64,000 nt of DNA from Alphaproteobacteria bacterium UBA3773 (GTDB taxonomy: Bacteria; Pseudomonadota; Alphaproteobacteria; RF32; CAG-239). The DNA lies in contig DFFP01000009.1 in NCBI GenBank assembly GCA_002372275.1, forward strand, positions 5,833-69,832, written 5' to 3'. Below the pieces are notes generated by a model. It worked only from the letters and a program-made list of their open reading frames with translations. It ran no database searches and was not told the origin of the DNA. Of the stretch, positions 3,612 through 24,049 are shown piece by piece. Each line of letters begins with the position of its first letter. Within the stretch, counting starts at the first letter, position 1. A program made the translations under genes and the position numbers.

Positions 3612-5429
3612 ATGCAAATTCAGAATTTATTCAGAAAACATAATGTCGGTCTGTTTTTAATTCATTTTTTTGTTTTTTATGTGCTGGTTATGTTTGCTCG
3701 GTTTTTGACGACATCCGGTAAGCTTGATCTTTGTATGTGGCAGGGATATCAACTTTCGTTTGCTCTTGCATTTGCATCTGTTTCTGCTCTTTTTGATTAT
3801 AATAAAAAAAATACCGTTCTCTTTTTATTTGTCTCATTTTTGTGGGGTGCGGCATGCTTGTGTAAAATAGGGGTTGGGATGGTGTTATCCGAACGCGAAA
3901 TTGTGCAAACAATCGGGTTTGGAACAGTCTCGTATGTTCTTTTTTCTGTTTTGCTTTATCTCACTCTTTTGGTTAAAAATAAATTCTTTGCTTTGCTCTT
4001 AAAGTGTTTTGTTTTGATTTTATTTGCTATTGTACTTTTGCCGCCGCTTTTGGTTATCGGCTATTATGTGGTCAGTGATGGACATATGCTTTCAAGTAAT
4101 ATTTTGCTGACCTTGTTTCAAACAAATGTTGGAGAGGTTTATGCTTATTTGGCTGAACAAAATGTTTGGCTTTGGGGTGTTTCGGTAACGGCAATCGTTG
4201 TCGTTTCTGTTCTTGTTTCTTATTTATTGGGGCATATCCGAGTGCAGGCTCATTTAGGAAAACTTCTTGTTTTTAATTTAATTTTGATTGTTTATTTAAT
4301 TTTCAGCGTTGTGCCGAAGCTCAGTTCGAGTTTTGCAGTTAATATGTTTGTTCGTGTTGCTGATACATTAAAAGAATATAAATCATATGCGTTGAAAAGT
4401 TCAGAACGTGAGGCCAGACTTAAAACGCTCAAAGATGTATTAAGAACAGATGATGAGGCAGGACTTCATGTCTTGGTGATGGGCGAATCAACAGTCAGAC
4501 ATCACTTGGGCGCTTTCGGATATAAGAGAAATACAACGCCGTGGCTTTCTAAAATGGTTGGTGAAAACAAAAATACGATTATTTATCCGAAAGCCTATTC
4601 AAGTAATATCCAAACAGTGATGTCCATTCAATTTGCTTTAACTTCGCAAAATCAGTATAATGGTGTGTCGCTCGGGGATTCATATAGTTTAACGGAAGTG
4701 GCAACTGCTGCCGGTTATGAGACATATTGGATTTCAAATCAGATGCATTTTAATGCTTATGATACACCGATCAGTTCTATTTTTAACGGCGCTGATCACC
4801 GTATTTTTATTAATGATTATTTCGGGACAAGATTGCTCACAACTTATTATGATGAAAAATTGGCAGAAAAATTTCCGAAACTTGATGAAAATAAAAAGAC
4901 ACTGATTGTTTTTCATTTAATGGGATGTCATAACCTTTATATTGACAGATATCCGGCCGATTTTAAAACATTTACGGATGGCGATGATCCGCGTGTTGAC
5001 AGCTATGATGATTGTATTTTGTATAATGACTATGTTTTGTCGCTTTTGTATCAAAAGGCCATACAAAATAAAAATTTCATGTCATTTACGTTTTTATCCG
5101 ATCATGGGGAAGATCCGGATAATGGTTTAACACATGACTATTCAAAATTTACGTGGCGTATGCCTCATATTCCGTTTGTGACAATTTTTTCAAATGATTA
5201 CGCCTTAAAGCATGAAGATATTGTTGGGACACTTCAAGAACATAAAAACAGCTATTGGACGAGTGATTTATTGTTTAATTTGATGACCCATATTTTGGGA
5301 ATTGAAAATGTGCCGCATGATGCGCCGAAGTTTGATCTTTCAAAGCCGGAGTATGCAATGACTAAAGATAATTTGACGATTATTGAGGGCTCACTTCGCG
5401 TGGCAGATGATGATAGCAAGGACAGATAA
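3612..5429 (+). CDS. Phosphoethanolamine transferase (EptA/sulfatase-family LPS or lipid A modifying enzyme)
   Basis: N-terminal polytopic membrane domain, then a C-terminal sulfatase-like domain with HLMGCH and LSDHGE motifs. Confidence 0.8.
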   Translation: MQIQNLFRKHNVGLFLIHFFVFYVLVMFARFLTTSGKLDLCMWQGYQLSFALAFASVSALFDYNKKNTVLFLFVSFLWGAACLCKIGVGMVLSEREIVQTIGFGTVSYVLFSVLLYLTLLVKNKFFALLLKCFVLILFAIVLLPPLLVIGYYVVSDGHMLSSNILLTLFQTNVGEVYAYLAEQNVWLWGVSVTAIVVVSVLVSYLLGHIRVQAHLGKLLVFNLILIVYLIFSVVPKLSSSFAVNMFVRVADTLKEYKSYALKSSEREARLKTLKDVLRTDDEAGLHVLVMGESTVRHHLGAFGYKRNTTPWLSKMVGENKNTIIYPKAYSSNIQTVMSIQFALTSQNQYNGVSLGDSYSLTEVATAAGYETYWISNQMHFNAYDTPISSIFNGADHRIFINDYFGTRLLTTYYDEKLAEKFPKLDENKKTLIVFHLMGCHNLYIDRYPADFKTFTDGDDPRVDSYDDCILYNDYVLSLLYQKAIQNKNFMSFTFLSDHGEDPDNGLTHDYSKFTWRMPHIPFVTIFSNDYALKHEDIVGTLQEHKNSYWTSDLLFNLMTHILGIENVPHDAPKFDLSKPEYAMTKDNLTIIEGSLRVADDDSKDR

Positions 5430-5440
5430 ATTGCAGAAAA

Positions 5441-5787
5441 AAATGCCATTATGAGCATTTTTTTATCCTCGAGCCCTTTCGGGTTCGATTTCCACGGTAC
5501 AACATCAATAAACAAAAAAAAACACTCTTTGGGTGTTTCTTGTTTATTGGAGCAGACAACGGGAATATGTAGCTAAAGCTACTCGCTAATCAAAAATCTA
5601 AATTCGTTGCGGGCGTTTGCACACTTCCTTACTCATTAAAATTTTTGATCCTCTTGCGGTAAAAAATGCCATCTCGGGCATTTTTTATCCTCGAGCCCTT
5701 TCGGGTTCGATTTCCACTGTACAACATCAATAAACAAAAAAAACACCCTTTGGGTGTTCTTTGTTTATTGGAGCAGACAACGGGAAT
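5441..5787. repeat. Two-copy imperfect direct repeat (about 125 bp per copy, period 221 bp). It contains terminator hairpins and the last 19 nt of tRNA-Gly.
   Basis: 5441..5566 aligns with 5661..5787 at about 93% identity. Copy 2 continues into the intact tRNA. Copy 1 ends at ...tggagcagacaacgggaat and then diverges. Confidence 0.85.
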
Positions 5788-5842
5788 CGAACCCGCATTA
5801 AAAGCTTGGGAAGCTCTCATTCTACCATTGAATTATGTCTGC
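5769..5842 (-). tRNA. tRNA-Gly (anticodon CCC)
   Basis: Minus-strand read GCAGACATAATTCAATGGTAGAATGAGAGCTTCCCAAGCTTTTAATGCGGGTTCGATTCCCGTTGTCTGCTCCA. It has a 7-bp acceptor stem, a D-arm, anticodon loop TTCCCAA, a T-arm GGTTCGATTCC and a CCA end. Confidence 0.9.
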
Positions 5843-5892: not shown

Positions 5893-6537
5893 TTATATGA
5901 GCTTTTCTGTTTTAAAAGCAAATGATATTTTTCCGATGATTTTTAATTTTTTGAGACTGCAGGTTGTGCTTTGATACTTTGCGTTGTCTAAAATAACGGC
6001 ACACTCGGATGAGGATATTTGTTGCAGGCGGCGGACATGCCAGCCGTTTGGTAGCTCAATGAGATATAAGCCGTCTGAAGTTAATGAGTTAACAGATGTG
6101 TCAAGAAAAACATAATCGCCGTCTTTTAAGGTAGGAAACATGGAATCTCCCGTGATGCGAAACATCTTTGTTGTTTGAGCAGGGGCTGACGAAAAATTAG
6201 AAAAATCGGATAAAGGAATTGATAGGTAACCTGAAGTTTTTGCTTCAAAATTTTTTGTGGGGGCGAGAGAAATCAATTCAATCAAGGCTGATGATTTTGG
6301 ATCGGTATTATATGTCGATTTTGGAAGAATAATGTCGGTCAATTCTTGTTCTTCGACATCTAAAAGTTCAGCTAACTTGCGGCGCTCGCTTTCCGGTAAA
6401 CGTAAGGGAGAGCCTTTGTTAATAAATTGGTGTAAGTATGCCTCGTTTTTGCCGATGGCAAGCGAAAGAGAACGATAATTTTTGTTCTTTTCTTTGATTA
6501 ATGCGTCAATATGCGCGCGGATTTGGTCGATGTTCAT
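5893..6537 (-). CDS. Prophage CI/LexA-like repressor (HTH plus S24 peptidase)
   Basis: C-terminal GDSMFPTLKDGDYVFLD S24 autoprotease motif. The likely start is MNIDQIRAHID at 6537. Transcribed divergently from the early genes. Confidence 0.8.
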   Translation of the reverse strand: MNIDQIRAHIDALIKEKNKNYRSLSLAIGKNEAYLHQFINKGSPLRLPESERRKLAELLDVEEQELTDIILPKSTYNTDPKSSALIELISLAPTKNFEAKTSGYLSIPLSDFSNFSSAPAQTTKMFRITGDSMFPTLKDGDYVFLDTSVNSLTSDGLYLIELPNGWHVRRLQQISSSECAVILDNAKYQSTTCSLKKLKIIGKISFAFKTEKLI

Positions 6538-6665
6538 GAAGATTCTCCGGTTTTTATGAAGATATAAGATATCTATCATAAAAAAAATATCTGTGCAAAT
6601 AATAAATTTCTTATTGTATTTATAATAAAAATATCATATTTATCCAGGACGAAAGGAGAAAATAT

Positions 6666-7064
6666 ATGATAAAAACTAATTTTGAACGATTATATCATAA
6701 AGGATGGCTAAAATCTAAAACAAGTATGTGGAGAGAAACAGACAGATTTACGGCCGGACAGAAATTATATTTTTCTTATGAAAAAAGTCAGGATTATTCT
6801 GTGGGAGTTATCGATCCGACAAGGTTATATGTTAATTCTTTTTCGATTGAAAAGGGTTTAGGAAATTTTTCGCAAGAAAAAGAAAAATTTATAAAAGCAT
6901 ACGGCGCCGTTCCGATTGGACTTAGAAAAATCATAGAGAATTTGATTTTGAAAAATATTGCCCCAGCTTTGAACGATAAAAAAGAAGTGGCGCAATACAA
7001 AGAAAAACTTTGTTTGGCACTTGATTGTTTGGTTTGTCATTATGTCAGAGGAAATCAAAAATGA
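6666..7064 (+). CDS. Phage early protein, hypothetical
   Basis: First ORF transcribed divergently from the repressor. RBS aggagaa upstream. Confidence 0.5.
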   Translation: MIKTNFERLYHKGWLKSKTSMWRETDRFTAGQKLYFSYEKSQDYSVGVIDPTRLYVNSFSIEKGLGNFSQEKEKFIKAYGAVPIGLRKIIENLILKNIAPALNDKKEVAQYKEKLCLALDCLVCHYVRGNQK

Positions 7065-7366
7065 TTGAAGAAGAAATGGTGAGACGCCAAACGGAATGTA
7101 TACGAATTTGCAGGCTATTTCGGGCTGTGTTGCAGAAAGCCGTTTCTGATGCGTTTGGGCCGAAATGCAGGCTTTCAAAAAGGAGAAAACTGAAAGAAAA
7201 AGCACGCGCATTTTTAAGTGATAATGAAGATTTTAGGCTGATTTGTAAGATGGCTTTTGTGGATCCGATGTGGATTTTAAGCGTTGTTGAACAGCCAAAA
7301 TTAAAAAATAAAGAAAAATATGAGCAAATACTTTTAAATATAAAGGATAATTATTATTATTTTTAA
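7061..7366 (+). CDS. Phage early protein, hypothetical (basic; possible regulator)
   Basis: ATGA start/stop overlap with the preceding ORF. Lys/Arg-rich, 102 aa. Confidence 0.45.
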   Translation: MIEEEMVRRQTECIRICRLFRAVLQKAVSDAFGPKCRLSKRRKLKEKARAFLSDNEDFRLICKMAFVDPMWILSVVEQPKLKNKEKYEQILLNIKDNYYYF

Positions 7367-7458
7367 GATATTTCATATATTTAAGCCTGTTTTCCACAGG
7401 GGATTGACACGTATAATAAAAATCTTATATATATAAGACAATTGATGAAAAAAACGGA

Positions 7459-7488
7459 AACGCAACGAATTATGTTGCGTTTTTTTTG
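7459..7488 (+). terminator. Rho-independent terminator after the early genes
   Basis: Stem aacgcaac/gttgcgtt, then a T7 run. Confidence 0.6.
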
Positions 7489-7632
7489 ATGTTTAATTGG
7501 GTTGCGGCAGAAATGTCTGTTTAACGGGTTTGGGTGGGAAAACGAGAAAATCGGGCTTGAATGTGAGGATATGAATTTGGAAAGAAAAAATGTTGTTCAA
7601 ATAACAATTTTTTAAAAAATGAAAGGAAAATA

Positions 7633-8358
7633 ATGGTTGGAATTTTGGATATTTGTCGTTCGGCTGCGGATATAACGGCATCGCAGAGGCCGGATGATTT
7701 GTTTAGAGTTGATACGCAACATAATGCGATTTTTTTATCAATCGCCGAAAATGAATTGGAGAGTTTACTCAGGTATGGAAATTGGCCCGAATTGATTAAA
7801 GAAGGGCGTTTTAGAACACAGCCGAACAAAACTTATTATGCATTTGATCAAATTACTGCGGATTTCTATTGTTTAACCCATAATACGCTCTTTATTAAAG
7901 ACAGAAATGAACGCGTTTTAGGCTCATTCACGTATGAAGAAGCGATGCAAAGAAAGTATTTAAAAACTTCTTCGGGGGAACTTGAATTTAGAATTGAAAA
8001 TAACGGTTTGCGCTTTTTAAAAGCACCTCTGGCGAATTTGAGTGTTGTGTTTTTGTATCGCTCAAATACGATTTGCTATGACGCGGTGACAGGCGAAGAA
8101 AAATGCAAATTGGAAAAAAATGATGATGTGCCTGTGTTTGATCAGTATATCGTTAAACTCGGTATTATATGGAGATGGCTTAAGCGTAGCGGGATGGATT
8201 ATGCCCAGGAATATAACGATTATCAAAATGAACTGAAAAGAAAATATGCACTAACGCTTGAAACACATGATATTTCGCTTGTTAGCGGATATGAACCTTC
8301 AAGATTTAACAATACAATCAATTTATGTGTCGGTGGAGACGGGTATGACAGAAGTTGA
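7633..8358 (+). CDS. Phage protein, hypothetical (241 aa)
   Basis: ORF overlapping the portal-like gene start by 14 nt. No recognisable motif. Confidence 0.5.
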   Translation: MVGILDICRSAADITASQRPDDLFRVDTQHNAIFLSIAENELESLLRYGNWPELIKEGRFRTQPNKTYYAFDQITADFYCLTHNTLFIKDRNERVLGSFTYEEAMQRKYLKTSSGELEFRIENNGLRFLKAPLANLSVVFLYRSNTICYDAVTGEEKCKLEKNDDVPVFDQYIVKLGIIWRWLKRSGMDYAQEYNDYQNELKRKYALTLETHDISLVSGYEPSRFNNTINLCVGGDGYDRS

Positions 8359-10117
8359 AATTTGGATTGAAAAAATACGTCGATCGGAAAAAAAATATGC
8401 TGATTATTTTGATAAAATTAAAACGATACGTCGCTATTATAAAAATGAAAATTCAAGAAATAAACAAAATATTTTTTGGGCAACGATTGAAACCTTAAAA
8501 CCGTTCTTGTATTTTAAGGAACCGAAAGTATTTATCAAGCAAAAAGAAAAATCAGGGCCGCTTGCGCTTTCGGTCGCTTGTCGAATTTTAGAAAAAGCTT
8601 TGGCTTGGAATATGGAACAAATCGATTTTGACAGCGTGATGAAATATGTCAGAAACGACTTTTTGCTTTTTGGATTTGGGGCCGCTTTTGAAAGGTATGT
8701 GCCGACATTTAAGACGTGTCACGTCAATGAAAACGGACATGATGTTTCACTACAACTCTTAAAAGATGAAAAAATTGAAACGGTTTATATCCCTCCGGAA
8801 GATTTTTTGGCCGATACGGAAAAAGTCAATGTGTGGGAAGATTGCGGGTGGATTGCACGTAAAATCGTTATGAGTTTGTCTGAAATTCGCGCCCAATTCG
8901 GTGAAGAAATTTTTCAAAAAATTGTGCAAAAAAACGGTGCCGACAAAATGGACTCCATGACGGTTTATGAAATATGGGATAAGAAAAGTAAGCGTATTTT
9001 ATATTTGGCTTTGGAATTTGCGTTTGAATTTTTGAAAATCAAAGAAGATGCGTTCGGACTTGAAGGATTTTGGGCCTTTCCGAAACCGTTGTTTGGGACG
9101 CTCGCAAATGACGGGATTATTCCGACACCTGATTTTGACCAATTAAAGCCTCTGCTTGATGAACTCTCCGGTGTGACGGGACGTATGCAACTTTTGATGC
9201 AAGCCATGAAGGTCACAGGGGCATATGACAGCAGTTTTCCGGAACTTGCAAATATCTTAAATAAAGATGTGACATTGGTTGCATTGTCGGATTTTGAGCG
9301 TTTAAAAGAAAACGGCGGTATTAAAGGAGTTGTGGATTTCGCCCCGATTGAACAATATGTGTCGGCGTTAACTGTTTTGGCATCAAGACGCGAGGATATC
9401 ATGACACAAATTTATGATATGACCGGGGTCAGCGATATTATGAGAGGAATGTCGGATAAAACGGAAACGGCAACCGCAGTTGAGAAAAAAACGAACTTCG
9501 GGACACTTCGCAATCAGGACAGACAAAATGATATGGTGCGCTTGATGACAAACCTCTTTCAGATGAAAGCTGAAATGATTTGCAGTTGTTTTGATGCAGA
9601 GCACTTGAAAATGTTTGCAGATTCTGAAACGCCTGATGATGTTGTTCAAACAGCTATTCTAATCTTAAAAGAACAAAAATTACGCGGAATGATTTTGGGA
9701 GTGGAAACAGATACGGCATTTGCGCAAAGTCATATCTTAGAGCAAACGCAAAAAAGTATTTTAGCTGTGCATGGCTTGATTAAAGAGGCATTTGAAATGG
9801 TTTCGATTCAACCTTCGCTGTTGGGGCTGTATCGACAGATGATTTCGACACTTGTTTCGACGATGCCTTGCGCCAGACAATATGAGCCCGTGATGGAGAA
9901 AGTATTTGAACAAATTGATGAAGCTCTTCGTTTGCCGAGTCCGCCTACGCAAGATATTTTGGCCTTGCAGCTCAATCAGCAAAAACAAAAAATGTGGCTC
10001 GACTATGATATTAAAACTAAAGAACTCGCTTTGAAAAAAGAAGAGGTTGAAATCAAAAAAACGGAAGCACTTCATAAGGTTTGTGCCAAAGAACATACCT
10101 TAAAAACAAAGAAGTGA
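8345..10117 (+). CDS. Putative portal (head-tail connector) protein
   Basis: Size (about 590 aa), a position in the head module, and a coiled-coil-like C-terminal tail. This is an architectural assignment only. Start placed at the ATG at 8345. Confidence 0.45.
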   Translation: MTEVEIWIEKIRRSEKKYADYFDKIKTIRRYYKNENSRNKQNIFWATIETLKPFLYFKEPKVFIKQKEKSGPLALSVACRILEKALAWNMEQIDFDSVMKYVRNDFLLFGFGAAFERYVPTFKTCHVNENGHDVSLQLLKDEKIETVYIPPEDFLADTEKVNVWEDCGWIARKIVMSLSEIRAQFGEEIFQKIVQKNGADKMDSMTVYEIWDKKSKRILYLALEFAFEFLKIKEDAFGLEGFWAFPKPLFGTLANDGIIPTPDFDQLKPLLDELSGVTGRMQLLMQAMKVTGAYDSSFPELANILNKDVTLVALSDFERLKENGGIKGVVDFAPIEQYVSALTVLASRREDIMTQIYDMTGVSDIMRGMSDKTETATAVEKKTNFGTLRNQDRQNDMVRLMTNLFQMKAEMICSCFDAEHLKMFADSETPDDVVQTAILILKEQKLRGMILGVETDTAFAQSHILEQTQKSILAVHGLIKEAFEMVSIQPSLLGLYRQMISTLVSTMPCARQYEPVMEKVFEQIDEALRLPSPPTQDILALQLNQQKQKMWLDYDIKTKELALKKEEVEIKKTEALHKVCAKEHTLKTKK

Positions 10118-10140
10118 TGTATGTTTGCAAAGGAATAAAA

Positions 10141-11700
10141 ATGATTAAAAAAAATGTCAACAGGTCTGTGAAATCTTTAGACTTTATTTTGCCGGCGCCT
10201 GTTGGAGGACTCAATAAAAAAGATCCGCTCTCGGATATGCCCCAAAATGATGCCGTGGTGATGGAAAACTATATTCCGATGAACAGTGTGGTCCAATTAA
10301 GGCCCGGATATGAAAAATATGTGTCGCTCGGAGATTTTGTAAATGGCAAAAAAGTGGAAACTCTTTGTTCGTGTCATATGGAAAATAAAAGTAAGATGAT
10401 AGCTGTTTATGACGGATATGCTTATGATGTATCAACAGCCTCAGCGCGCCGATTTGAAAATGTTCAATTTAGCCGTAGCTTATGTCAAACGGTTTGTTAT
10501 CGGGGGCATCTTTATTTTATGAATGGTGCGGATACGCCAAAAGTTTATTATATTGATGACCAGCAAGCAGAACATTTTGAGGATTGGGGATTTGTGGGAG
10601 AGGGGCTTCCTTCGCACAATATTGTTAGTGCCGGCGTCAGTCATGAATTTTTGTGGTTTATTGAACAAAATTCAACGCACGCTTGGGTTTCGGAAGTTGC
10701 CGGAAATATCGCAGGGACACTCAAACTGTTTGATGTTGCGCAAATCTTAAAATGGGGCGGACATTTGATGGCAGTTTTTAACTGGACAATCGACGGCGGG
10801 GAAGGTTTGGATGATTATACCTGTTTAATCAGTAGCGAAGGTGAACTGCTTATCTATCAGGGATATAACCCAAATGATGCAAATCATTTTACATTGATGG
10901 GGTCTTATAAATTTTCAAAGCCGATCGGATATCAATGTGTTCTTCCTTTGAAGGGTGATGTCATTATCATTTCAGAAGACGGTTATTTGCCGCTTTCGCA
11001 AGTCTTAAGCGCCAATAATACGCCCGGAACATTGGCCGCGTTTTCGGATAAAATAAATAATCTTGTGATGGAACGTGCGGCGCTTTATAAAAAAAATGAC
11101 GGGTGGCAAGGAATCATCTACCCAAAAAAAGGGTATGGCATATTTAATGTGCCCGTCAGTAACACATTTGAGCAACATGTAGTTAATCTGCAAACAGGGG
11201 CATGGTGCGTTTTTAAGAATATTCGCTCATTTTGTTGGTGTCTTTATGATGAAAATTTGTTTTTCGGAACGGACTGCGGTATTTGTCGCTTTGATAAGGG
11301 GTATTCGGATAACGGTTTGGCAATTGAAGGACGCATTGAGCAAGCTTATACGAATTTGGGCACAAATGCTTTAAAAAAAATCACACTGATCAAACCACGA
11401 GTGAAGGCAACAGGTAATTTTTTATTGGTCATCGGGACGGATATGGATTTTGAAGACAGAAAAATTTCCGATTCCGTTCAAATGGAATTTGAAAATAAAA
11501 AATTTGCAGTTTGGAATCAGGCGGTTTGGAATGCGGATTTTTGGCAGTCGTCAGGTAAGGGAAAAATACAGGGAAAATGGATTGCAAATTCGGCAACCGG
11601 ATTTAAGGCAAGTGTTGTGTTTGAAACAAAAACAAATGCCAATGATATTCAATGGTATGAAACAGCTCTTCGGATGGAAACGGGAACGGGAATTTTGTAG
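10141..11700 (+). CDS. Phage structural protein, function unknown (about 520 aa)
   Basis: Large ORF between the portal-like gene and the GroES-like gene. No recognisable motif. It could be a tail-tube or nozzle-type protein. Confidence 0.4.
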   Translation: MIKKNVNRSVKSLDFILPAPVGGLNKKDPLSDMPQNDAVVMENYIPMNSVVQLRPGYEKYVSLGDFVNGKKVETLCSCHMENKSKMIAVYDGYAYDVSTASARRFENVQFSRSLCQTVCYRGHLYFMNGADTPKVYYIDDQQAEHFEDWGFVGEGLPSHNIVSAGVSHEFLWFIEQNSTHAWVSEVAGNIAGTLKLFDVAQILKWGGHLMAVFNWTIDGGEGLDDYTCLISSEGELLIYQGYNPNDANHFTLMGSYKFSKPIGYQCVLPLKGDVIIISEDGYLPLSQVLSANNTPGTLAAFSDKINNLVMERAALYKKNDGWQGIIYPKKGYGIFNVPVSNTFEQHVVNLQTGAWCVFKNIRSFCWCLYDENLFFGTDCGICRFDKGYSDNGLAIEGRIEQAYTNLGTNALKKITLIKPRVKATGNFLLVIGTDMDFEDRKISDSVQMEFENKKFAVWNQAVWNADFWQSSGKGKIQGKWIANSATGFKASVVFETKTNANDIQWYETALRMETGTGIL

Positions 11701-11708
11701 GAGGAACG

Positions 11709-11951
11709 ATGAAAGCAATAACAGACAGAGTGTTAATTATGCTTGATGAACAAAATGATGGAAATCTTTTAATTCCTGAAACGATTGAGCGGCCTCAAAC
11801 AACAGGAATTGTGATTTCGGTCGGAAATAAAGTGAAAGATATTCAAAAAGGTGATCATGTCGTTTTTCACGCTTTTGATGAAGTACCTTGTTTGGAAAAT
11901 AGAGTGGTTGCCGTGAGGGATAAATCTATTTTGGCCATATTGGAAGAATGA
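11709..11951 (+). CDS. Phage-encoded GroES-like co-chaperonin (Cpn10 family)
   Basis: The 80-aa protein aligns along its whole length with GroES. ITDRVLIMLDE matches LHDRVIVKRKE, TTGIVISVGNK matches the region around EVLAVGNG, and IQKGDHVVFHAF...ILAILEE matches VKVGDIVIFNDG...DILAIVE. Confidence 0.7.
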   Translation: MKAITDRVLIMLDEQNDGNLLIPETIERPQTTGIVISVGNKVKDIQKGDHVVFHAFDEVPCLENRVVAVRDKSILAILEE

Positions 11952-12184
11952 TGGAAAAAACATTGAAAGAAATATTGGAAAAAATGATGAGGAAAAAAAC
12001 AGTTCGAGAAAGAATTTGTGCTATGCTCATCGGAGAGGCTCAAAACGGGAATTTTAAGGCCTTGGACGCTATTAGAGATATTATAGGCGATAAAGATAAA
12101 TCGCATCGCGATGAGCCTGAGCCGGTGACAAATATCAAAATCGAGGTGATCGATGGGACGCATTATCAAAATCAAGATTGCTAA
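11948..12184 (+). CDS. Small phage protein, possibly the small terminase subunit
   Basis: 78-aa ORF immediately upstream of and overlapping TerL. The assignment rests on position only. Confidence 0.3.
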   Translation: MMEKTLKEILEKMMRKKTVRERICAMLIGEAQNGNFKALDAIRDIIGDKDKSHRDEPEPVTNIKIEVIDGTHYQNQDC

Positions 12185-13472
12185 GCCTTTTTTGCCGCTG
12201 ATCAGCACAAACAAAAGAATTAAATTGTATTGGGGCGGGCGCGGCGGCGGAAAGAGCTATGCATTTGCCGATGCACTTTTGCTTAAAGGGTTGGAGAAAA
12301 AACTTTTAATTGCATGCGTGCGTGAAATTCAAGACACAATTAAAGATTCCGTTCATCGCTTACTTTCAGACCGAATTGAATTTTATGACTTAAAAGAATA
12401 TGAAGTCAAAGAAAGCGAAATTGTAAATACCTTAAACGGGACACGCTTTATTTTTAAGGGTCTGCGCAATCAGGATGCACATAAAATTAAATCGCTTGAA
12501 GGCGTGGATATTGTTTGGATTGAGGAAGCCCAGACCATTACAAAAAAATCGTGGGAGATTTTGTCGCCGACCATTCGAAAAGACGGGTCGGAAATTTGGA
12601 TTTCGATGAACAGAGAAGAAGAAAATGATCCGCTTTGGGTGCTTTTAGGCAGCCATCAAGATGAGCGTACGCTCATTGAAAAAGTCAACTTTTATGATAA
12701 CCCTTTTTGTCCTGAAGAACTGAAACTGCAAGCCAAAGAATGTCTGGCTCATGATGAAAGCACCTATCGGCATATTTGGCTCGGAGAGCCGCTTTCTCAA
12801 GGGGCACACAAGTTGATTGATGCCGGACTTGTGAAACATGCAATGCAACCGAAAATTTCGGAAAGTACCTCGCCACTTATCATCGGGCTTGATGTGGCGC
12901 GTTTCGGAGATGACCAAACTGTTTTTTGCTTGCGCAAAGGGCGAAAATGTTTGTCTTTTTTATCTTTTGAAAAAAAAGATAATGTCGAAGTGGCAAATAT
13001 TGCGACAAATTTGATTGAAACAAAACGTCCCTTACGTATTTTTTTGGATGCAGGCGGTGTGGGCGGCGGTGTGTTTGATATCTTAAAAGACAGAGGTTTT
13101 AAGGATATCATAAGAGGTGTTAATTTCGGCTCTAAAGCGATTAATGAAGAGCGTTATGCCAACAGAAGAGCCGAAATGTGGGATCATCTGCGGCAATGGC
13201 TGACAGAAGAAGTCGAGTTGCCAAATAATGGTATGCTCTATGATGAATTGTGTACCGTGCGCAAAAAATATGATGCGCTTGGAAGACTCTTACTCGAAGA
13301 AAAAGAAGAAATAAAAAAAAGAATAGGGCGTTCGACCGATTGGGCAGATGCCCTCGCGTTGACTTTTGCAGAGCCTGTTTATGATAAAGGACACACCAGA
13401 TTTTATGGTAACGGGCAGGTTTGTTTGGAAGAAATGTTTCAGGCTTCAAATCAGCGTATGCCGGTGTGGTGA
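12153..13472 (+). CDS. Terminase large subunit
   Basis: Walker A YWGGRGGGKSYAFA, Walker B DIVWIEEAQ, and a C-terminal nuclease-like domain. Length 439 aa. Confidence 0.85.
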   Translation: MGRIIKIKIAKPFLPLISTNKRIKLYWGGRGGGKSYAFADALLLKGLEKKLLIACVREIQDTIKDSVHRLLSDRIEFYDLKEYEVKESEIVNTLNGTRFIFKGLRNQDAHKIKSLEGVDIVWIEEAQTITKKSWEILSPTIRKDGSEIWISMNREEENDPLWVLLGSHQDERTLIEKVNFYDNPFCPEELKLQAKECLAHDESTYRHIWLGEPLSQGAHKLIDAGLVKHAMQPKISESTSPLIIGLDVARFGDDQTVFCLRKGRKCLSFLSFEKKDNVEVANIATNLIETKRPLRIFLDAGGVGGGVFDILKDRGFKDIIRGVNFGSKAINEERYANRRAEMWDHLRQWLTEEVELPNNGMLYDELCTVRKKYDALGRLLLEEKEEIKKRIGRSTDWADALALTFAEPVYDKGHTRFYGNGQVCLEEMFQASNQRMPVW

Positions 13473-13486
13473 TAAGGAATAATCAA

Positions 13487-13696
13487 ATGTTTGAAGAGAT
13501 TTTGTTGCCGGGTGGGGCTGTGGCCTCGTCGGCACAAGAGCTGGATGCTTACCTTAAAGAAAATCAGGTGGCACTTTCAGCAGATTACAGCTTAGCATAT
13601 TTGAAAAATGTGCGGCAGAAAATTAAAGCCGATCAAAGAAGAGAGGCTTTTGAAGATTTCGTTAACGAATATAAAAAAAGGATTTGGAATGAGTGA
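13487..13696 (+). CDS. Small phage protein, hypothetical
   Basis: ORF between TerL and the scaffold gene. Confidence 0.35.
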   Translation: MFEEILLPGGAVASSAQELDAYLKENQVALSADYSLAYLKNVRQKIKADQRREAFEDFVNEYKKRIWNE

Positions 13697-14552
13697 TAAT
13701 CTCAGGGAAGAATTAAAAGAAAATTTTGCTTCGGCTGATTTGCAAAGCAAAGAAAATGTGGCAGATAATACAGAGGAAGGAATTTCGCAAGATCAAAGTC
13801 TGGCGGAAAATTCGATTCCCGCGCCTCAAAGTTATCCGAAAGAATTTCAGGAACTTTTTAAGACGCTTTCGCCAAAATGGCAGGGATATTTGCTTGAGCG
13901 CGAAAAACAAGTCGAAAAAGGTTTTTCTGAACTTGGAAATAAAGTAAGCAGCTATAAATGGTCAGACCAAATTTTTGAAGACAGAAAGGAAAGATTAAAG
14001 GCACTCGGATATAACGGCGCAAAAGATTATATCCAAAAATTGATTTCAATTGATGATGCCTTGTATCAAAATCCGGCAGAAACTTTGAAAAAAATAAATG
14101 ACATTTACAGCTCACAAACAGTCAATAACAATGTTTCTATGACAGATGAGCAAAGAAAAATTTGGGAAAATATTGCGCTTGCTTCAAAAATGTTTGAACA
14201 AAAACAAAATGAGGCCGCAATGTTTGATTTGAAGCGATTTCAAGATGCTGTGACAGAGGACGGAAAATTAAAACATCCTTTTTATAAAGAGCTTGGCTCT
14301 GAAATGATCGGTGTTTTGAAAAGCGGGGCAGCCGGCAATTTGGAAGAAGCTTATCAAAAAGCTTTGTGGCTCAATCCTGCTACGCGTGAAAAAATGATTG
14401 AAGAGAAAATAGGAAATGTTTTGGAAGAAAAATTTTTGGCTGCTCAAAAAGCAACCGAAGCCTCTTTTTCGCCTTCATCAAAAACAGAACAAAAAGTTCA
14501 AGAACTTTCTTTGCGCGAAGAATTGGAAGCAGCTTTTAGAAAGGAAATTTAA
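13689..14552 (+). CDS. Putative scaffolding protein
   Basis: Acidic, Gln/Glu/Lys-rich, predicted helical protein located immediately upstream of the capsid gene. Confidence 0.5.
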   Translation: MSDNLREELKENFASADLQSKENVADNTEEGISQDQSLAENSIPAPQSYPKEFQELFKTLSPKWQGYLLEREKQVEKGFSELGNKVSSYKWSDQIFEDRKERLKALGYNGAKDYIQKLISIDDALYQNPAETLKKINDIYSSQTVNNNVSMTDEQRKIWENIALASKMFEQKQNEAAMFDLKRFQDAVTEDGKLKHPFYKELGSEMIGVLKSGAAGNLEEAYQKALWLNPATREKMIEEKIGNVLEEKFLAAQKATEASFSPSSKTEQKVQELSLREELEAAFRKEI

Positions 14553-14555
14553 TTT

Positions 14556-15539
14556 ATGACAGTCAATACAAATTATGATGCGATTTTTACAACAACAATT
14601 GAAAATCGCTCAAAAAAACTGGCCGATAATGTAACAAAAAATAATGCCTTGTTGCAAAGATTATCGGCAAAAGATAAAATCAGAACCGTAGACGGCGGCT
14701 CGAAAATTTTGGAAGAATTGGAGTATGGCAACGGTGATCTTGTATGGTATTCGGGATTTGATACAATTTCGTACAGCGGTCCGGAGCTCTTCTCGGCAGC
14801 CGAATATGCTTTGAAACTTTGTGCTGTTCCGGTAGCCGTTTCGGGTGAAGAAATGCTTAAAAACGCCGGCACTGAACGGATGATCGATTTGTTTGAAAAA
14901 CGTATTCAAAATGCCGAAAAAACAATGGCAAATAAAATTTCGGAAGCTCTTTATTCTGACGGCACAGGCAGCTCCGGTAAGGAAATCGGCGGTTTAAAAC
15001 TTTTGGTGGCGGATTCTCCTTCAACAGGAACAGTCGGTGGGATTAACCGTGCAACCACCGGAAACGAATTTTGGCGCAATCAATCAAGCGTTATTTCTTC
15101 TGCTGCCGGCGCACTTTCATCATCAACCATCTTAAAAAAAATGAATGATGTGTATTTGGCTTGTTCAAGAGGAACAGATAAGCCCGATTTGATTGTGACG
15201 GACGATTATTTATATGATATGTTTGAAAGTGCTTTGCAACCATCACAACGCTTTTGTGACCCGAAACTTGCCGACGCCGGATTTCAATGCTTGAAATATA
15301 AAGGCGCTGATGTGATTTTTGACGGTGGACAGGGCGGAAGTTGTCCTTCAAAGCATATGTATTTCTTAAATACGAATTATCTCTATTTAAGACCGCACAA
15401 AGATCGTAACTTTAAGGTTATCGGTGGCGAAAGACTTTCGATTAACTCTGATGCCATTTACAAAATCATCGGCTGGGCAGGAAATTTAACTATGTCTAAT
15501 GCTGCGCTTCAAGGTGTTCTCGTCGATTACATCGCTTAA
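14556..15539 (+). CDS. Major capsid protein
   Basis: 327 aa. Position after the scaffold gene, with a composition typical of HK97-fold coat proteins. Followed by a strongly structured repeat. Confidence 0.65.
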   Translation: MTVNTNYDAIFTTTIENRSKKLADNVTKNNALLQRLSAKDKIRTVDGGSKILEELEYGNGDLVWYSGFDTISYSGPELFSAAEYALKLCAVPVAVSGEEMLKNAGTERMIDLFEKRIQNAEKTMANKISEALYSDGTGSSGKEIGGLKLLVADSPSTGTVGGINRATTGNEFWRNQSSVISSAAGALSSSTILKKMNDVYLACSRGTDKPDLIVTDDYLYDMFESALQPSQRFCDPKLADAGFQCLKYKGADVIFDGGQGGSCPSKHMYFLNTNYLYLRPHKDRNFKVIGGERLSINSDAIYKIIGWAGNLTMSNAALQGVLVDYIA

Positions 15540-15540
15540 A

Positions 15541-15842
15541 AAACGCGTCTAGCTGGTATCTAATACAAAAAAGTCTGTTTGCGTTCGGTCGTGTACGAAT
15601 AAGTACACTCGTCTCACTCAAGCAGACTTTTCTTATTATATACGCACGCCATCCGTGTTTTTTTGCATTTATAGTGGAAGTTCTATTCTGCGCACCCTTA
15701 AAAAATGTTCGCTCTTTTGGTGAAAACGCGTCTAGCCGGTATCTAATACAAAAAAGTCTGTTTGCGTTCGGTTGTGTACGAATAAGTACACTCGTCTCAC
15801 TCAAGCAGACTTTTCTTATTATATACGCACGCCATCCGTGTT
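15541..15842. repeat. Two near-identical 119-bp tandem direct repeats (period 183 bp), each forming a long nested hairpin
   Basis: 15541..15659 and 15724..15842 differ at about 2 positions. Each copy has a 13-bp stem aaaagtctgtttg/caagcagactttt enclosing a gtgtac...gtacac hairpin. Confidence 0.9.
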
Positions 15843-15873
15843 ATGACGCTTTTTAGAAAAGGAGTATTCATCA

Positions 15874-16896
15874 ATGGCAAGAATGGATGAACAAACATAT
15901 AAAATCATACGTGGTATGAAAACAATTCAAAGACAGCACCCTCAAAAAGGGGAGAGTAAGTGGTATTATTTGGATCCGCGGGGTGCAACAAGAATAGCCG
16001 ATATGGGGGTGATAGACGTTGAAAGTGAGTATGCGCCTAACCCTTATGCAAGAGAAATTTTAATAGATGATATGAAACGCCATGAAGAAGATTATTATAT
16101 TTGGCGGACAAAAGGTGATGAAAAAGTAAGGGCCAGTCATGAAGAGCGTGAAGGAAAAGTTTATAATAGAAATTTGCCGCCTGATGGGGGTAATCCGGGA
16201 GAAGAACATAACTGCAGGTGTTGGGAAGAGGAATTTAAGTTTGAGAAGATGAAAAATGTTGATATGATTGATCTATTGGAAGAAATTGGTGCAGAATTAT
16301 CAGATGATGAGTTATATGACCGAATGTGGGAGAATATTAAAAGATTTGAAGATATTAAAACGTATCCATACCTTGACACAAAAGGATTAATTACAATTGG
16401 TGCCGGTGCAAATGTAAACAATTTGGATGTTTTTTTGAGTTTAAATTTGACAGTCAACGGATTTTCGGCAACAAGAGAACAAAAGTTAGAAGCATATAAA
16501 CAGTTGAAATGGTTGAGTGAACAAAAAGATGAGAAAGGAATGTATCTATATTATAATAGAAGAGCAAAATTTTTTGAAAAAGAAACAAATGTCCGTTTAC
16601 CTGATGTAGAAATACGGCAATTAGCACAAAGGCATATGACAAGTGATTTAAAACATTTGCGGCAAGAATTTGAAAGTTTTGACGAATTTCCTTTACCGTT
16701 AAAAGAAATATTACTGGATATTCAATATAATGTCGCAGGTGGATTGAGTGAAAAAAAATGGCCGAAGTTATACAGAGCTATACGTCAAAAAGATATGTTA
16801 GGCAAAGAAGGAATTGCAGAAAATGTGAATAGGCCGGATGTCGGAAAAAGTCGTAATGATTGGGCAAAAGGAATGGCGCGTTCAATCAGATTCTAA
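15874..16896 (+). CDS. MuF-motif minor head protein fused to a GH24 phage-lysozyme domain
   Basis: N-terminal region carries DEKVRASHEEREGKVY...PGEEHNCRCW, the C-terminal signature of the Phage_Mu_F/gp7 domain. The C-terminal region carries FEDIKTYPYLDTKGLITIGAGA, matching the T4-lysozyme E...D...TIGxG motif. Confidence 0.6.
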   Translation: MARMDEQTYKIIRGMKTIQRQHPQKGESKWYYLDPRGATRIADMGVIDVESEYAPNPYAREILIDDMKRHEEDYYIWRTKGDEKVRASHEEREGKVYNRNLPPDGGNPGEEHNCRCWEEEFKFEKMKNVDMIDLLEEIGAELSDDELYDRMWENIKRFEDIKTYPYLDTKGLITIGAGANVNNLDVFLSLNLTVNGFSATREQKLEAYKQLKWLSEQKDEKGMYLYYNRRAKFFEKETNVRLPDVEIRQLAQRHMTSDLKHLRQEFESFDEFPLPLKEILLDIQYNVAGGLSEKKWPKLYRAIRQKDMLGKEGIAENVNRPDVGKSRNDWAKGMARSIRF

Positions 16897-17319
16897 TTTA
16901 TCGGGAGGTGTGACGCAATATATATCATTTGCAAACTCCTGTTCTTGTGTGTAGTCTTCCCATATATCAAAGTCATTTTCTGCTATTCTTAAACAATCTT
17001 GCGTAATCCGTTCTGTTATTTTAAAAACAAAATATTGTTTAGGACCTTTTTTATCGGGATTATGCCAATACAAATCACATAAAAGAGTGATACGATTTTG
17101 GGTGTTTTCAATAAGTTGACAGTCTCCGGTCATAGCTACCAGATTGTCATCTAAAGGAGTTCGGCTATCAATAGATGTGGGGGTAATGTATGTTAAAGTA
17201 GAGCTTCTGCCTAAAGGCTTCAGAGGCTGATTAAAAATAGGATTAACAAACTGCTCCTTAGCGTTTGCGGTCAAAATAAAAAGAAAAACAAAAATGAAAA
17301 GAAAGAACATTTTTTTCAT
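16882..17319 (-). CDS. Secreted moron protein (signal peptide, Cys-containing), paralog A
   Basis: MKKMFFLFIFVFLFILTANA signal peptide. Shares the C.LIEN...LLC motif and a conserved upstream sequence with 17720..18139. Confidence 0.6.
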   Translation of the reverse strand: MKKMFFLFIFVFLFILTANAKEQFVNPIFNQPLKPLGRSSTLTYITPTSIDSRTPLDDNLVAMTGDCQLIENTQNRITLLCDLYWHNPDKKGPKQYFVFKITERITQDCLRIAENDFDIWEDYTQEQEFANDIYCVTPPDKLESD

Positions 17320-17354
17320 TCATTATACCTCGCTTTAAAGATTCTATATAGGGT

Positions 17355-17726
17355 TTGTTAAAATATGATAAAGGAAATTATGTAAATCATAATAAACGAG
17401 CGACAGCTTTTATTAATGATAGCCCTTTGCGAATTTCAAAAGAGTATATGATTGAACGGATGATGAATCATTTAAGAGAAGATTTAAAACGGGCAAAATC
17501 TAAAAGGAAAGATTTTGATACATACCCAACTCCATTAAAACTTATTATATTAGATTTTTATTATAATAAAGGTAGTTTTTATAATCAACCAGGATTACCT
17601 CAAGCATTAGATGAACGAAATGCGATATTATTTCAAGAAAAAATGGTAAGACATATGAGAGATAGAGATGAATGGACGCAACGACAATTTAACCGTATAA
17701 ATCAAAATTTTTGGAAAATTTATTGA
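17355..17726 (+). pseudogene. Lysozyme C-terminal fragment, a remnant of a module duplication
   Basis: The ORF uses a TTG start inside the repeated promoter sequence. Its product aligns only with the C-terminal half of the lysozyme domain of 15874..16896 (PLKxIxLDxxYN) and lacks the catalytic N-terminus. Confidence 0.5.
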
Positions 17727-18139
17727 TAAGGAGGAATAGTTATTAAACCATCATTTGTGAGGATTTCCTCAAAAATTATGTTTCCAAGATTATCGTAAAT
17801 TTTATGATTAATAATGTATTGTTCCGGTGTCGTTTGGTCTTTTGTTAAAGAAAAAGAGTGATTTGTATTTGTGTGAGATGTACATTCAAGGTTAAGGCAC
17901 TCATTACAAAGCATTTTTATATAAGATTCTTGATTTTCAATAAGAGAACAAGGAATATTTAAGGTAATATTGTTTCGCGAATTTTCATAATATTTCGAAC
18001 TTGGTGTTAAAACATAAAATGCTTCTTTGTCAGAAGTTACTAATTTTTGATAGAAAACAGGATGTAAAAAAAACGTTTTAGTTTGAGCATAAGCATTGAT
18101 GCTCACAATAAAAATGAAAAGAAAGAAAAATTTTTTCAT
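17720..18139 (-). CDS. Secreted moron protein, paralog B
   Basis: MKKFFFLFIFIVSINAYA signal peptide. The same 45-bp upstream element (agattctatatagggtttgttaaaatatgataaag) occurs at 17322..17380. Confidence 0.6.
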   Translation of the reverse strand: MKKFFFLFIFIVSINAYAQTKTFFLHPVFYQKLVTSDKEAFYVLTPSSKYYENSRNNITLNIPCSLIENQESYIKMLCNECLNLECTSHTNTNHSFSLTKDQTTPEQYIINHKIYDNLGNIIFEEILTNDGLITIPPYQ

Positions 18140-18204
18140 CTATGACACCTCGCCTTAGAGATTCTATATAGGGTTTGTTAAAATATGATAAAGAGGGGAT
18201 GAAT

Positions 18205-18453
18205 TGTATGAGCTGTTTTTTTGATTTTGATTGACAATTTTTGTAAATTGTGCCATCCTTAAAATAAGGCAGGGTGGTATCTGCCCCGAGGATTAGAACC
18301 CTCTCACTCGTTGCTAATGAAAGCGTAAAATTTCCTTCCGGTTAAGGCTGGAAGGAGGCTAATAATCGATTATTGAAAATATGCCCGCTATTTCGAGTGA
18401 ATAGGTTCTAACTTCCAGTCGCCTTACCAAGGCGAATTTTTTTATGGAGGCAT
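18205..18453 (+). promoter_or_regulatory. Structured 5' leader with an intrinsic terminator just upstream of the RBS (attenuator- or riboswitch-like)
   Basis: TTGACA at about 18229. Long-range helix ggattagaacc...tcactcg/cgagtga...ggttctaa. Hairpin ccttccggttaaggctggaagg. Terminator cgccttaccaaggcg plus a T8 run ending at 18445. The gene's ATG is at 18454. The antiterminator candidate ggctggaag/cttccagtc overlaps the terminator. Confidence 0.5.
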
Positions 18454-19176
18454 ATGATGAAAAAAATATTTATTATCGGGATATTCAGCTTTATGATTAA
18501 TTTTTCTGCACATGCAGAAATTATAATAGGTTCGGATTGCAATAATAAATGTACTTGGTTTTATGATACGCAAACGCAAGATTTAAGAATTGCTCCAAAT
18601 GCAGGCGCATCAGGGGATTTAGTTGTTGGAAATGGTGGTTCATCTTTTGGAGGTATCACAATCAACAATGTGACAATTGAAGAAGGAATTACAGGTTTTA
18701 ATGCTAACAGATTTAACACGGGGATGGGAACAGGATATACAGGAAAAGGAACATTAAAACTGCCGGAAAGTTTGAAGATGACAACAGCATCCGGAAATAT
18801 AGATTTGGCTTTTCAAGCTCTTGATTTGACGGCGACAAATTTGCAAAGCGTCGATTCACTGTCTATACGGCGTTTGCAAAATGTTATCTTAACACCTAAA
18901 GAAGGTTTTGTATTTCCGAGTAATTTTTTGGGAAGATGGAGAAACAGTAAATATACCGGTGCTTATATTGAAGGGGATATCACTATTCAGTGCCGCGGGG
19001 AAATGGCGCTTTGTGAGCAAATGATGGCTAAAGTGAAAGAATACGAAAATAGTCTCGGGGTTGATTTTTTTGTTCGTTATTTTGATAATAGAAAACGCCG
19101 AATTTATACGATTGACGAGGCTGTTGAGGCTCTGGGTAAGAATAATAAAAATACGTTTAGGTTAAAGTATCGGTAA
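18454..19176 (+). CDS. Secreted protein, paralog of 30952..31809 (conserved KRRIYxIDEA...KNxxTFxLKYR C-terminus)
   Basis: Signal peptide MMKKIFIIGIFSFMINFSAHA. Shares a GS[DE]C...CT[WY].YD N-terminal motif and the C-terminal about 25 aa with the ORF at 30952..31809. Confidence 0.7.
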   Translation: MMKKIFIIGIFSFMINFSAHAEIIIGSDCNNKCTWFYDTQTQDLRIAPNAGASGDLVVGNGGSSFGGITINNVTIEEGITGFNANRFNTGMGTGYTGKGTLKLPESLKMTTASGNIDLAFQALDLTATNLQSVDSLSIRRLQNVILTPKEGFVFPSNFLGRWRNSKYTGAYIEGDITIQCRGEMALCEQMMAKVKEYENSLGVDFFVRYFDNRKRRIYTIDEAVEALGKNNKNTFRLKYR

Positions 19177-21058: not shown

Positions 21059-21069
21059 AGGAGGATAAA

Positions 21070-21828: not shown

Positions 21829-21829
21829 T

Positions 21830-23389: not shown

Positions 23390-23392
23390 ATA

Positions 23393-23668
23393 ATGAACGA
23401 TATTAAGATACTTTGGTTTATTGTGATGGCGGCGATTGTTTCCGCCATTTTGCGTTTTAAAAACATAACTCAGCTCTGCTTTGACGGATTGCTCGGTTTT
23501 GTGATGGGCTATTCTTTTTATCTGCTCTTGGGTTATTGGATTGCAGATGGGGCAACAAGGGCCGGCTTTACGGGGGTGATTATTTTATGTTCACGCCCGT
23601 TATATGACGGGCTTAATCACATTCTTTCAAGCAGGCTTGAAGATTTATTGGAACGGTATTTAAGATAA
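23393..23668 (+). CDS. Putative holin
   Basis: 91 aa with 2 to 3 predicted transmembrane segments, immediately upstream of the spanin pair. Confidence 0.5.
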   Translation: MNDIKILWFIVMAAIVSAILRFKNITQLCFDGLLGFVMGYSFYLLLGYWIADGATRAGFTGVIILCSRPLYDGLNHILSSRLEDLLERYLR

Positions 23669-23895
23669 TGAAACGTTTGCTCTTTTTATTTTTAAGTGTT
23701 TCGTGTTTGTGCCTTTTTTCGTATTTGGCGGGATATAATAGAGCGTTCCAAAAAATGAAAAATGCACATATCAAAGAGCTTGAACAAAAAACTGAGGTGA
23801 TTAAAAATGAAAATCAAAAACGCGCTCAAATATGGGCTCAGCCTCATGCTTTACATCATGAGCTTATCGGGTTGTTCCTGCAAAACAAATTATGA
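23668..23895 (+). CDS. i-spanin (Rz-like)
   Basis: N-terminal transmembrane segment plus a coiled coil. ATGA overlap with the holin stop. Confidence 0.6.
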   Translation: MKRLLFLFLSVSCLCLFSYLAGYNRAFQKMKNAHIKELEQKTEVIKNENQKRAQIWAQPHALHHELIGLFLQNKL

Positions 23896-24049
23896 GTATT
23901 GCCCCGTTTATCCTTTGGGTGGCGAAAAGGTCGGGCATGAACTTGAAAAACTAAACGGGGAAGAATTTGAAGCCACATTTGAGTGGATAGCCAGAATAAA
24001 TAAACTAAGGCTTGAGCTTGAAGAATGTCAAAATAAACAAATGAAATAA
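23807..24049 (+). CDS. o-spanin (Rz1-like lipoprotein) overlapping the i-spanin out of frame
   Basis: Lipobox LSGC, a second Cys, and a start embedded in the Rz-like gene in a different frame. The true start may be the internal Met at 23849. Confidence 0.6.
   Translation: MKIKNALKYGLSLMLYIMSLSGCSCKTNYEYCPVYPLGGEKVGHELEKLNGEEFEATFEWIARINKLRLELEECQNKQMK

Follow-up and report, generated by a model that had tools for sequence, protein, structure and literature searches.

The analysis of a 64,000-nucleotide stretch of contig DFFP01000009.1 (positions 5,833 to 69,832 of the forward strand; Alphaproteobacteria bacterium UBA3773, GCA_002372275.1), hereafter referred to as the window, outlined a phage-like element of about 18 kb that carries, among its head and packaging genes, a gene (cpn10) encoding a true but divergent phage-type GroES/Cpn10 co-chaperonin. 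Phage GroES homologues are an established category, and the identification itself adds little. Part of the novelty resides in the group to which the protein belongs, a separate subfamily of Cpn10 proteins that lack the roof hairpin and display a FHxFDEL signature, distributed across a widespread family of Mx8-like temperate phages of gut and rumen Alphaproteobacteria. On balance, we consider it probable that this protein is expressed late and operates as a lid on host GroEL, aiding the folding or assembly of head proteins. The gene and the elements of its product are located as follows.

11709..11951, plus strand: Cpn10/GroES-family open reading frame (ORF), 80 aa, ATG start, characterised through Pfam, PHROG, AlphaFold2 (AF2), Foldseek and dN/dS.
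11699..11703, plus strand: Shine-Dalgarno sequence GGAGG, read from the sequence, 5 nt 5' of the cpn10 ATG and overlapping the stop codon of a 539-aa gene.
11745..11804, plus strand: mobile-loop region, residues 13-32, the low-confidence stretch of the structural model, aligned to GroES residues 15-37.
11760..11774, plus strand: G18-N19-L20-L21-I22, by alignment the counterpart of GroES G23-G24-I25-V26-L27 (GroEL-binding tripeptide).
11826..11840, plus strand: site of the roof-hairpin deletion, N40-D44, with 9 residues fewer than GroES N45-D58 in the alignments.
11865..11885, plus strand: F53-H-A-F-D-E-V59, the window version of the signature FHxFDEL, common to the nearest HMMER matches.

Profile searches matched the protein to the Cpn10 family over almost its entire length, in agreement with the end-to-end alignment claimed by the initial annotation of this DNA. 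Residues 2-77 aligned to positions 3-92 of the 93 in the Pfam Cpn10 profile (PF00166; 39.9 bits, gathering cut-off 21.1, E 4.4e-10), and residues 1-79 to positions 3-95 of the 96 in PHROG 3188, 'co-chaperonin GroES' (E 4.7e-11). Among 1.84 billion representative proteins, 132 matches to this 80-aa protein were obtained at E<=1e-3, and all single-domain matches of up to 125 aa whose sequences were read proved to be Cpn10-like, most of them 78-95 aa long and with a short roof. Searches with phmmer against PDB sequences returned 25 sequences at E<=10, including Cpn20/Cpn11 and Thermus Cpn10; T4 gp31 was not among these 25. Judged from these sequence comparisons, the Cpn10 match lies far above chance. 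The matches also comprised a 2333-aa representative protein (P0008) with nine Cpn10-like stretches, which was the second-best match (E 4e-16), and several of 160-330 aa in which two or three Cpn10 domains are arranged in tandem.

Structure prediction pointed to the same family. The AF2 model, based on 75 homologues, presented a mean pLDDT of 89.2 and a pTM of 0.77, with low confidence only at residues 11-30 (means of 75 and 67 for the two 10-residue blocks), corresponding to the mobile loop, which is expected to be disordered. The first 34 Foldseek matches against PDB were all Cpn10, GroES or gp31 structures (TMq 0.58-0.79), encompassing GroEL-bound GroES (1aon_O, with TMq 0.69, 4pkn and 8wuc) and T4 gp31 (2cgt_O and 1g31_A, the latter with E 8e-4, TMq 0.67 and 17% identity). 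The named top matches among predicted viral structures (BFVD) were likewise viral 'Co-chaperonin GroES' proteins. Both the Pfam Cpn10 match and the GroES barrel, on which the initial annotation had staked its proposal, were hence recovered. An assignment to a fragment of an alcohol dehydrogenase (ADH) was considered and rejected, as the ADH_N 'GroES-like domain' fell under its cut-off (E 0.0012) and oxidoreductase folds matched with E>0.01, reflecting the shared superfold only.

To relate the protein to GroES, it was aligned to the E. coli protein (97 aa) and to 90 unique sequences of the family. The strands that make the subunit interface in GroES are conserved at both the N-terminus (KAITDRVLI, versus RPLHDRVIV in GroES) and the C-terminus (SILAILEE, versus DILAIVEA), and the core KGDHVVF is also present, so that the motifs listed in the initial annotation (N-terminal strand, mobile loop, KGDHVVF and SILAIL) could all be located. 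Within the mobile loop, the hydrophobic tripeptide is separated from the next invariant Gly by 10 residues, the same spacing as in GroES. Among the 90 family sequences, the two positions preceding the tripeptide are occupied by Gly in 66% and 68% of cases, and those of the tripeptide itself by hydrophobic residues in 90%, 97% and 100%. The presence of Gly followed by a hydrophobic tripeptide was the functional criterion for viral GroES used by Marine et al. 2017 (PMC5649160). The loop motif did not form part of the pattern used to search for related loci, and it therefore provides an independent sign of selection on the GroEL-docking element.

The protein is 17 residues shorter than GroES. The roof hairpin accounts for 9 of these, the N-arm of the mobile loop for 3, the segment that follows F67 for another 3 and the N-terminus for the remaining 2. 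The shortening of the roof hairpin had also been recognized in the initial annotation; it leaves 8 residues between G39 and G48, versus 17 between G44 and G62 of GroES, and no strand was predicted in residues 39-49 of the AF2 model. The phage co-chaperonins T4 gp31 and RB49 CocO, which are needed for the folding of their capsid proteins, are also roofless (PMC5649160). As the roof has also been lost from gp31 and CocO and from some of the GroES clusters of viromes, its absence does not constitute a bar to co-chaperonin function. We also considered whether His54, in the signature, corresponds to Tyr71 of GroES, in which case it would reproduce in nature the engineered GroES cavity mutant Y71H (PMC4791398). 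This was rejected as alignment-dependent: MAFFT and HMMER place H54 opposite Tyr71, but a gapless comparison with short Cpn10 proteins (F-x-K-Y/F-x-G versus F-H-A-F-D-E) places F56 at that position.

The nearest homologues of the window protein have the signature FHxFDEL(P) in common. FHxFDEL was the search pattern that yielded loci L010-L109, and its invariance among them is due to ascertainment and is not a conservation statistic. The pattern was found in 18 IMG/VR loci and in 124 loci among species-representative genomes. The 80 loci listed out of these 124 all belong to metagenome-assembled genomes (MAGs) from gut, rumen or faeces, labeled as Alphaproteobacteria, Azospirillum, Azospirillaceae or Rhodospirillaceae, or more broadly as proteobacterium or Pseudomonadota, and the closest named relative of the window protein likewise originates from an Alphaproteobacteria MAG. 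Only one record in the phage collection presented a full-length match to the window protein, an unannotated 'Bacteriophage sp.' of 16,998 bp from human faecal samples (L009, MT835830.1), with a Cpn10 gene at 4901-5161 whose product is 46% identical. The cpn10 gene is under purifying selection, with dN/dS ratios of 0.12-0.39 among orthologues, and an intact ORF was observed in 107 loci (34-70% identity), among them those of complete phages of 32-35 kb.

These 107 related loci correspond to one phage family, with a common capsid protein (62-93% identity), portal protein, terminase large subunit (TerL) and other genes. Three gene orders were observed in this family. In order A (58 loci), which is also the arrangement of L009, the genes run as repressor, TerL, cpn10, portal, p91, scaffold, capsid, p186, tail, p539 (the 539-aa gene mentioned above) and GNAT. 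Order B, which is that of the window (16-18 loci), presents repressor, tail, portal, p539, cpn10, p78, TerL, p91, scaffold and capsid. In order C (at least 14 loci), the repressor is followed by cpn10, portal, fibre and other genes, and then by TerL. The cpn10 gene maps within the head module in all three orders, and in 86 of the 107 loci the portal gene lies directly 3' of it. Split genes were observed in some sister elements, with TerL present as two ORFs in L002 (6379-7699) and both portal and p539 divided in L005 and L006 (5835-9989). These split copies represent decay or assembly errors; the ORFs of the window copy are full length.

In the window, cpn10 is located in the head and packaging module, as originally described, with the 539-aa virion-type gene upstream and the 78-aa ORF and TerL downstream. 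The main features of the element, from left to right, are listed below.

5893..6579, minus strand: CI-like/S24 repressor at the left end of the element (PHROG 4 and 6201), with Peptidase_S24 detected in homologues and host genes directly upstream in relatives.
7633-8358: tail protein (PHROG 6013).
8258..10117, plus strand: portal protein (PHROG 12082, E 5e-97; synteny).
10081..11700, plus strand: 539-aa virion-type protein (p539), direct upstream neighbour of cpn10 (PHROG 5107, E 2e-75), homologue of Mx8 p52 (annotated 'amidase').
11948..12184, plus strand: 78-aa ORF with its start overlapping the cpn10 stop (PHROG 2412, of unknown function, E 8.5e-6).
12153..13472, plus strand: TerL, terminase large subunit (Pfam Terminase_3, E 9.5e-37).
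13608..14552, plus strand: putative scaffold protein, assigned by its conserved place ahead of the capsid gene, with no family match in the Pfam and PHROG scans.
14556..15539, plus strand: major capsid protein, HK97-type, 327 aa, 36 kDa (PHROG 9953, E 1e-108; tblastn).
15874-16896: MuF-like protein (Phage_Mu_F, 29.5 bits, slightly below the cut-off).
23393..24049, plus strand: putative lysis cassette at the right end, proposed from sequence features only, with a membrane protein of 91 aa (holin-like), an ORF of 75 aa and, overlapping, one of 80 aa that contains a lipobox-like LSGC (spanin-like).

The cpn10 gene is separated from its neighbours by gaps of at most 12 nt or overlaps with them. 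The stop codon of cpn10 shares the sequence ATGA (11948-11951) with the start of the 78-aa ORF and, together with the overlap between the Shine-Dalgarno sequence and the upstream stop codon, this places cpn10 in a densely packed string of co-directional genes. Translation of cpn10 is probably coupled to that of its neighbours. The 78-aa ORF precedes TerL in every locus with the gene order of the window and is possibly the small terminase subunit, judged by position only.

Several other features were noted in the structural module. The C-terminal half of the MuF-like protein contains a T4-lysozyme-like motif, E-x8-D-x5-T (FEDIKTYPYLDTKGLIT), and the protein may therefore be a virion-borne lysozyme fusion; a 123-aa ORF at 17355-17726 is similar to the C-terminal part of this lysozyme-like domain and is possibly a fragment. 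Two direct repeats of 131 nt (15540-15670 and 15723-15853), 95% identical and 183 nt apart, lie in the intergenic region that separates the capsid and MuF-like genes. In addition, the region 16882-18193 contains an 87-nt duplication with 90% identity (17287-17373 and 18107-18193), each copy of which is located at the 5' end of a minus-strand gene (16882-17319, 145 aa, and 17720-18139, 139 aa). Both small proteins present an N-terminus that is hydrophobic and signal-peptide-like, and a further ORF (18454-19176) has a similar N-terminus. This region, which most relatives lack, resembles a duplicated moron cassette within the structural module.

The element spans positions 5893-24049 and comprises the repressor, a seemingly complete Mx8-like set of head, packaging and tail genes and the putative lysis cassette; neither an integrase nor a replication gene was matched among its scanned ORFs. 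It is flanked on the left by a tRNA-Gly and a gene for a sulfatase-family protein, and on the right by genes for an ELM1-family protein and an ABC permease. The host genes adjacent to the repressor vary among relatives (MutS and PriA, DsbD, FlaF, or the CCA-adding enzyme), and complete IMG/VR relatives of 32-35 kb encode lysozyme, RNase H, ERF, VRR-NUC and a tyrosine integrase, indicating that the family is made up of real temperate phages. One criterion for gene transfer agents (GTA) is the possession of structural, packaging and lysis genes in the absence of genes for integration or replication. This pattern was observed in the window element, and the copy may be either a reduced, decaying prophage or an active GTA-like element. 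The variable host flanks and the existence of complete, integrase-bearing relatives favor a reduced prophage over a domesticated GTA. With the nearest relatives in Alphaproteobacteria MAGs and neither integrase nor replication genes found, the earlier designation as a small temperate or GTA-like element of an alphaproteobacterium was a fair one.

The tRNA-Gly was evaluated as a possible att site for the present element and rejected as probably unrelated, since the element lies on the 5' side of the tRNA and the duplicated 3' end on the other side. Next to this tRNA-Gly (5769-5842, minus strand) there is a tandem duplication of about 220 bp (5431-5566 and 5654-5787), composed of three repeat families with 82-98% identity. 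It contains a second 3' end of tRNA-Gly(CCC) and has the appearance of a scar left by a past integration and excision event at this tRNA, on the side facing away from the present element.

Megablast searches of the phage collection with the head module found nothing, indicating that no cultured phage is closely related to the element at the DNA level. By capsid protein, the closest cultured relatives are Myxococcus phage Mx8, Bradyrhizobium phage ppBjS10J-1 and Stenotrophomonas phage BUCT555, with about 47-48% identity in the tblastn search. Mx8 presents the same module content, with TerL, portal, scaffold, capsid, tail protein, the 'amidase'-annotated p52 and GNAT. The GNAT acetyltransferase of the window element (19945-20385) is kept within the tail/virion module, as it is in Mx8 (p53, annotated 'potential holin') and in ppBjS10J-1.

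The window protein can be set against three groups of known co-chaperonins. It shares with bacterial GroES (1AON chain O) the fold, the N- and C-terminal strands, the GD-x-V-x-F core and the ILAI tail but, unlike the bacterial gene, cpn10 does not lie beside groEL. Like gp31 and CocO, it is phage-encoded, recognizably similar in fold and devoid of the roof hairpin. The similarity to gp31 is, however, at the level of fold only. The window protein has a loop shorter than that of GroES and accompanies a 36-kDa capsid protein, and its carrier is of the small temperate podophage type, whereas that of gp31 is a large lytic myovirus. Viral GroES/Cpn10 homologues (PHROG 3188) resemble the window protein in being stand-alone Cpn10 proteins of about 80-100 aa with no phage GroEL beside them, a Gly plus hydrophobic-tripeptide loop and a location near head genes, and in several virome clusters they have also lost the roof. 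The window subfamily differs from them in its FHxFDEL signature, in its identity of no more than about 45% to anything in the cultured-phage collection and in its carriers, which are Mx8-like temperate podophages and not marine virioplankton, T4-like or jumbo phages.

The initial annotation regarded phage GroES genes as rare outside T4-like phages, and this claim could not be upheld. In 2017, GroES or gp31-type genes were reported in 165 of 2178 GenBank phage genomes, and viruses with GroES only are common in marine viromes, including roofless clusters and contigs inferred to be temperate (PMC5649160). Some genomes of CRP-901-type roseophages are annotated with both GNAT and GroES (PMC10149686). 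Searches by tblastn with a generic short Cpn10 detected GroES in jumbo, Bacteroides, Flavobacterium, Vibrio and Bacillus phages, the window protein itself matches the GroES of T4-like Campylobacter phages, and its own subfamily is present in at least 124 species. It is nonetheless fair to say that, among cultured phages, GroES is carried mostly by large ones, and that metagenomes are the main source of small temperate carriers.

In the reading that we favor, cpn10 would be expressed together with the late head, packaging and tail genes, and its product would, by homology, assemble into a GroES-like ring. Residues G18-N19-L20-L21-I22 of the flexible mobile loop would then dock this ring on the apical domains of host GroEL and, given the missing roof hairpin, we propose that the dome of the lid would be open or flattened. 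During particle production, the ring would provide extra or specialised lid capacity while head proteins fold or assemble with the aid of GroEL. Ring formation, docking on GroEL and the choice of client are what we infer from homology and gene context. The retuning of host GroEL for capsid folding, which the initial annotation ascribes to phage GroES homologues, is a supposition in the case of this protein. A search of the six frames of the window with a Cpn10 hidden Markov model (HMM) identified no second Cpn10. Cpn60/GroEL was looked for only among the ORFs of the element of at least about 110 aa, where no match was found, so that the GroEL partner would have to be that of the host. GroE is described as present in nearly all bacteria in a passage of PMC13245659. 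As for the client, the linkage to the portal gene makes the portal protein the best-linked candidate, the 36-kDa HK97-type capsid protein being the other. The portal protein B of phage lambda is known to require GroES/EL (PMC3224144).

A number of observations weigh against this reading. The NCBIfam models for cellular GroES (NF001527-NF001539) all scored under their cut-offs, the best reaching 28.9 bits versus 122 and the remainder 17-25 bits versus 96-142, which places the protein at a great distance from every GroES with a demonstrated function. Its mobile loop has an N-arm that falls short of that of GroES by 3 residues, the opposite of gp31, and a C-arm of equal length, and roughly one quarter to one third of the family lacks the GG preceding the tripeptide. 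In T4, the extended mobile loop of gp31 makes the cage larger for the 56-kDa gp23. A capsid protein of 327 aa, on the other hand, fits the ordinary GroEL/GroES cage, so that there is no evident reason for a special lid, and the combination of this capsid protein with a loop shorter than that of GroES means that the 'bigger cage' logic of gp31, whose loop is longer than that of GroES and enlarges the cage (PMC5649160), is not directly transferable. The portal protein, at about 70 kDa, exceeds the size for canonical encapsulation. In addition, the presence of groEL in the host is assumed on the grounds of the near-universal occurrence of GroE in bacteria, none having been seen in the window. Lastly, TerL abuts the portal gene in both Mx8 and ppBjS10J-1 with no Cpn10 between them, the family HMM detected no Cpn10 in stretches of about 19 kb around their capsid genes, and the tblastn search of the phage collection did not return either phage. 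The gene hence appears to be a clade-specific addition, and not an intrinsic need of this head type.

The alternative that best withstands the evidence, although we deem it unlikely, is that the protein is a morphogenetic factor independent of GroEL, such as an assembly chaperone for the portal or connector, a transient cap or a minor virion component, with the FHxFDEL surface as a phage-specific contact. This would accommodate the close and repeated association of cpn10 with the portal gene in 86 of the 107 loci and the location of the window copy between structural genes, as well as the remoteness of the protein from cellular GroES and the H/D/E-containing motif of its nearest relatives, which is absent from typical GroES. 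Some homologues in Campylobacter phages are also annotated, in what is annotation only, as 'putative capsid and scaffold protein'. A family-wide loop with Gly and a hydrophobic tripeptide is, however, hard to explain without GroEL, the strong structural neighbours are all co-chaperonins and, to our knowledge, no virion protein with a Cpn10 fold has been described.

A second alternative, slightly less credible still, envisages a host-takeover or competition device, in which the phage lid competes with host GroES so as to take over or redirect GroEL, halting the folding of host clients or countering a GroEL-dependent host response, with no particular phage client in need of it. The absence of the gene from Mx8 and ppBjS10J-1, according to which the head type has no strict need of it, would be in line with such a role, but cpn10 is coupled to late structural genes and not to early or takeover genes and, under a CI-type repressor in temperate elements, its expression would be confined to the end of the cycle. 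That cpn10 is a functionless passenger, acquired from another phage and now residing in a decaying prophage, is very improbable: no integrase or replication gene was detected in the window element and some related copies have a split TerL, portal or p539, but the dN/dS of 0.12-0.39, the intact ORF in 107 loci, its retention through three gene orders and the conserved functional loop motif all speak against it.

A bolder proposal joins two of these threads, and we would give it little credence as a whole. In it, the FHxFDEL Cpn10 would be a roofless lid dedicated to the portal, its gene kept beside that of the portal in most of the phage family, and would serve, with or without host GroEL, in the folding or ring assembly of a protein of about 70 kDa that is too large for the closed cage, and the 18-kb copy in the window would be a still-active producer of GTA-like particles derived from an Mx8-like podophage. 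If true, a portal-dedicated lid would offer a natural setting in which to address an old question, namely how GroE helps the assembly of lambda-type portals, and an active 18-kb element would represent a new kind of GTA in gut Alphaproteobacteria.

Returning to the preferred reading of a late-expressed lid on host GroEL, the cultured relatives that lack cpn10 supply a natural comparison, with and without the gene, for addressing why a small phage with an ordinary 36-kDa capsid protein has its own GroEL lid. The near-constant adjacency of cpn10 to the portal gene points to the portal protein as the client, echoing the case of lambda gpB. If the portal were confirmed as the client, this Cpn10 subfamily would provide a compact model for the client-specific tuning of a chaperonin lid.

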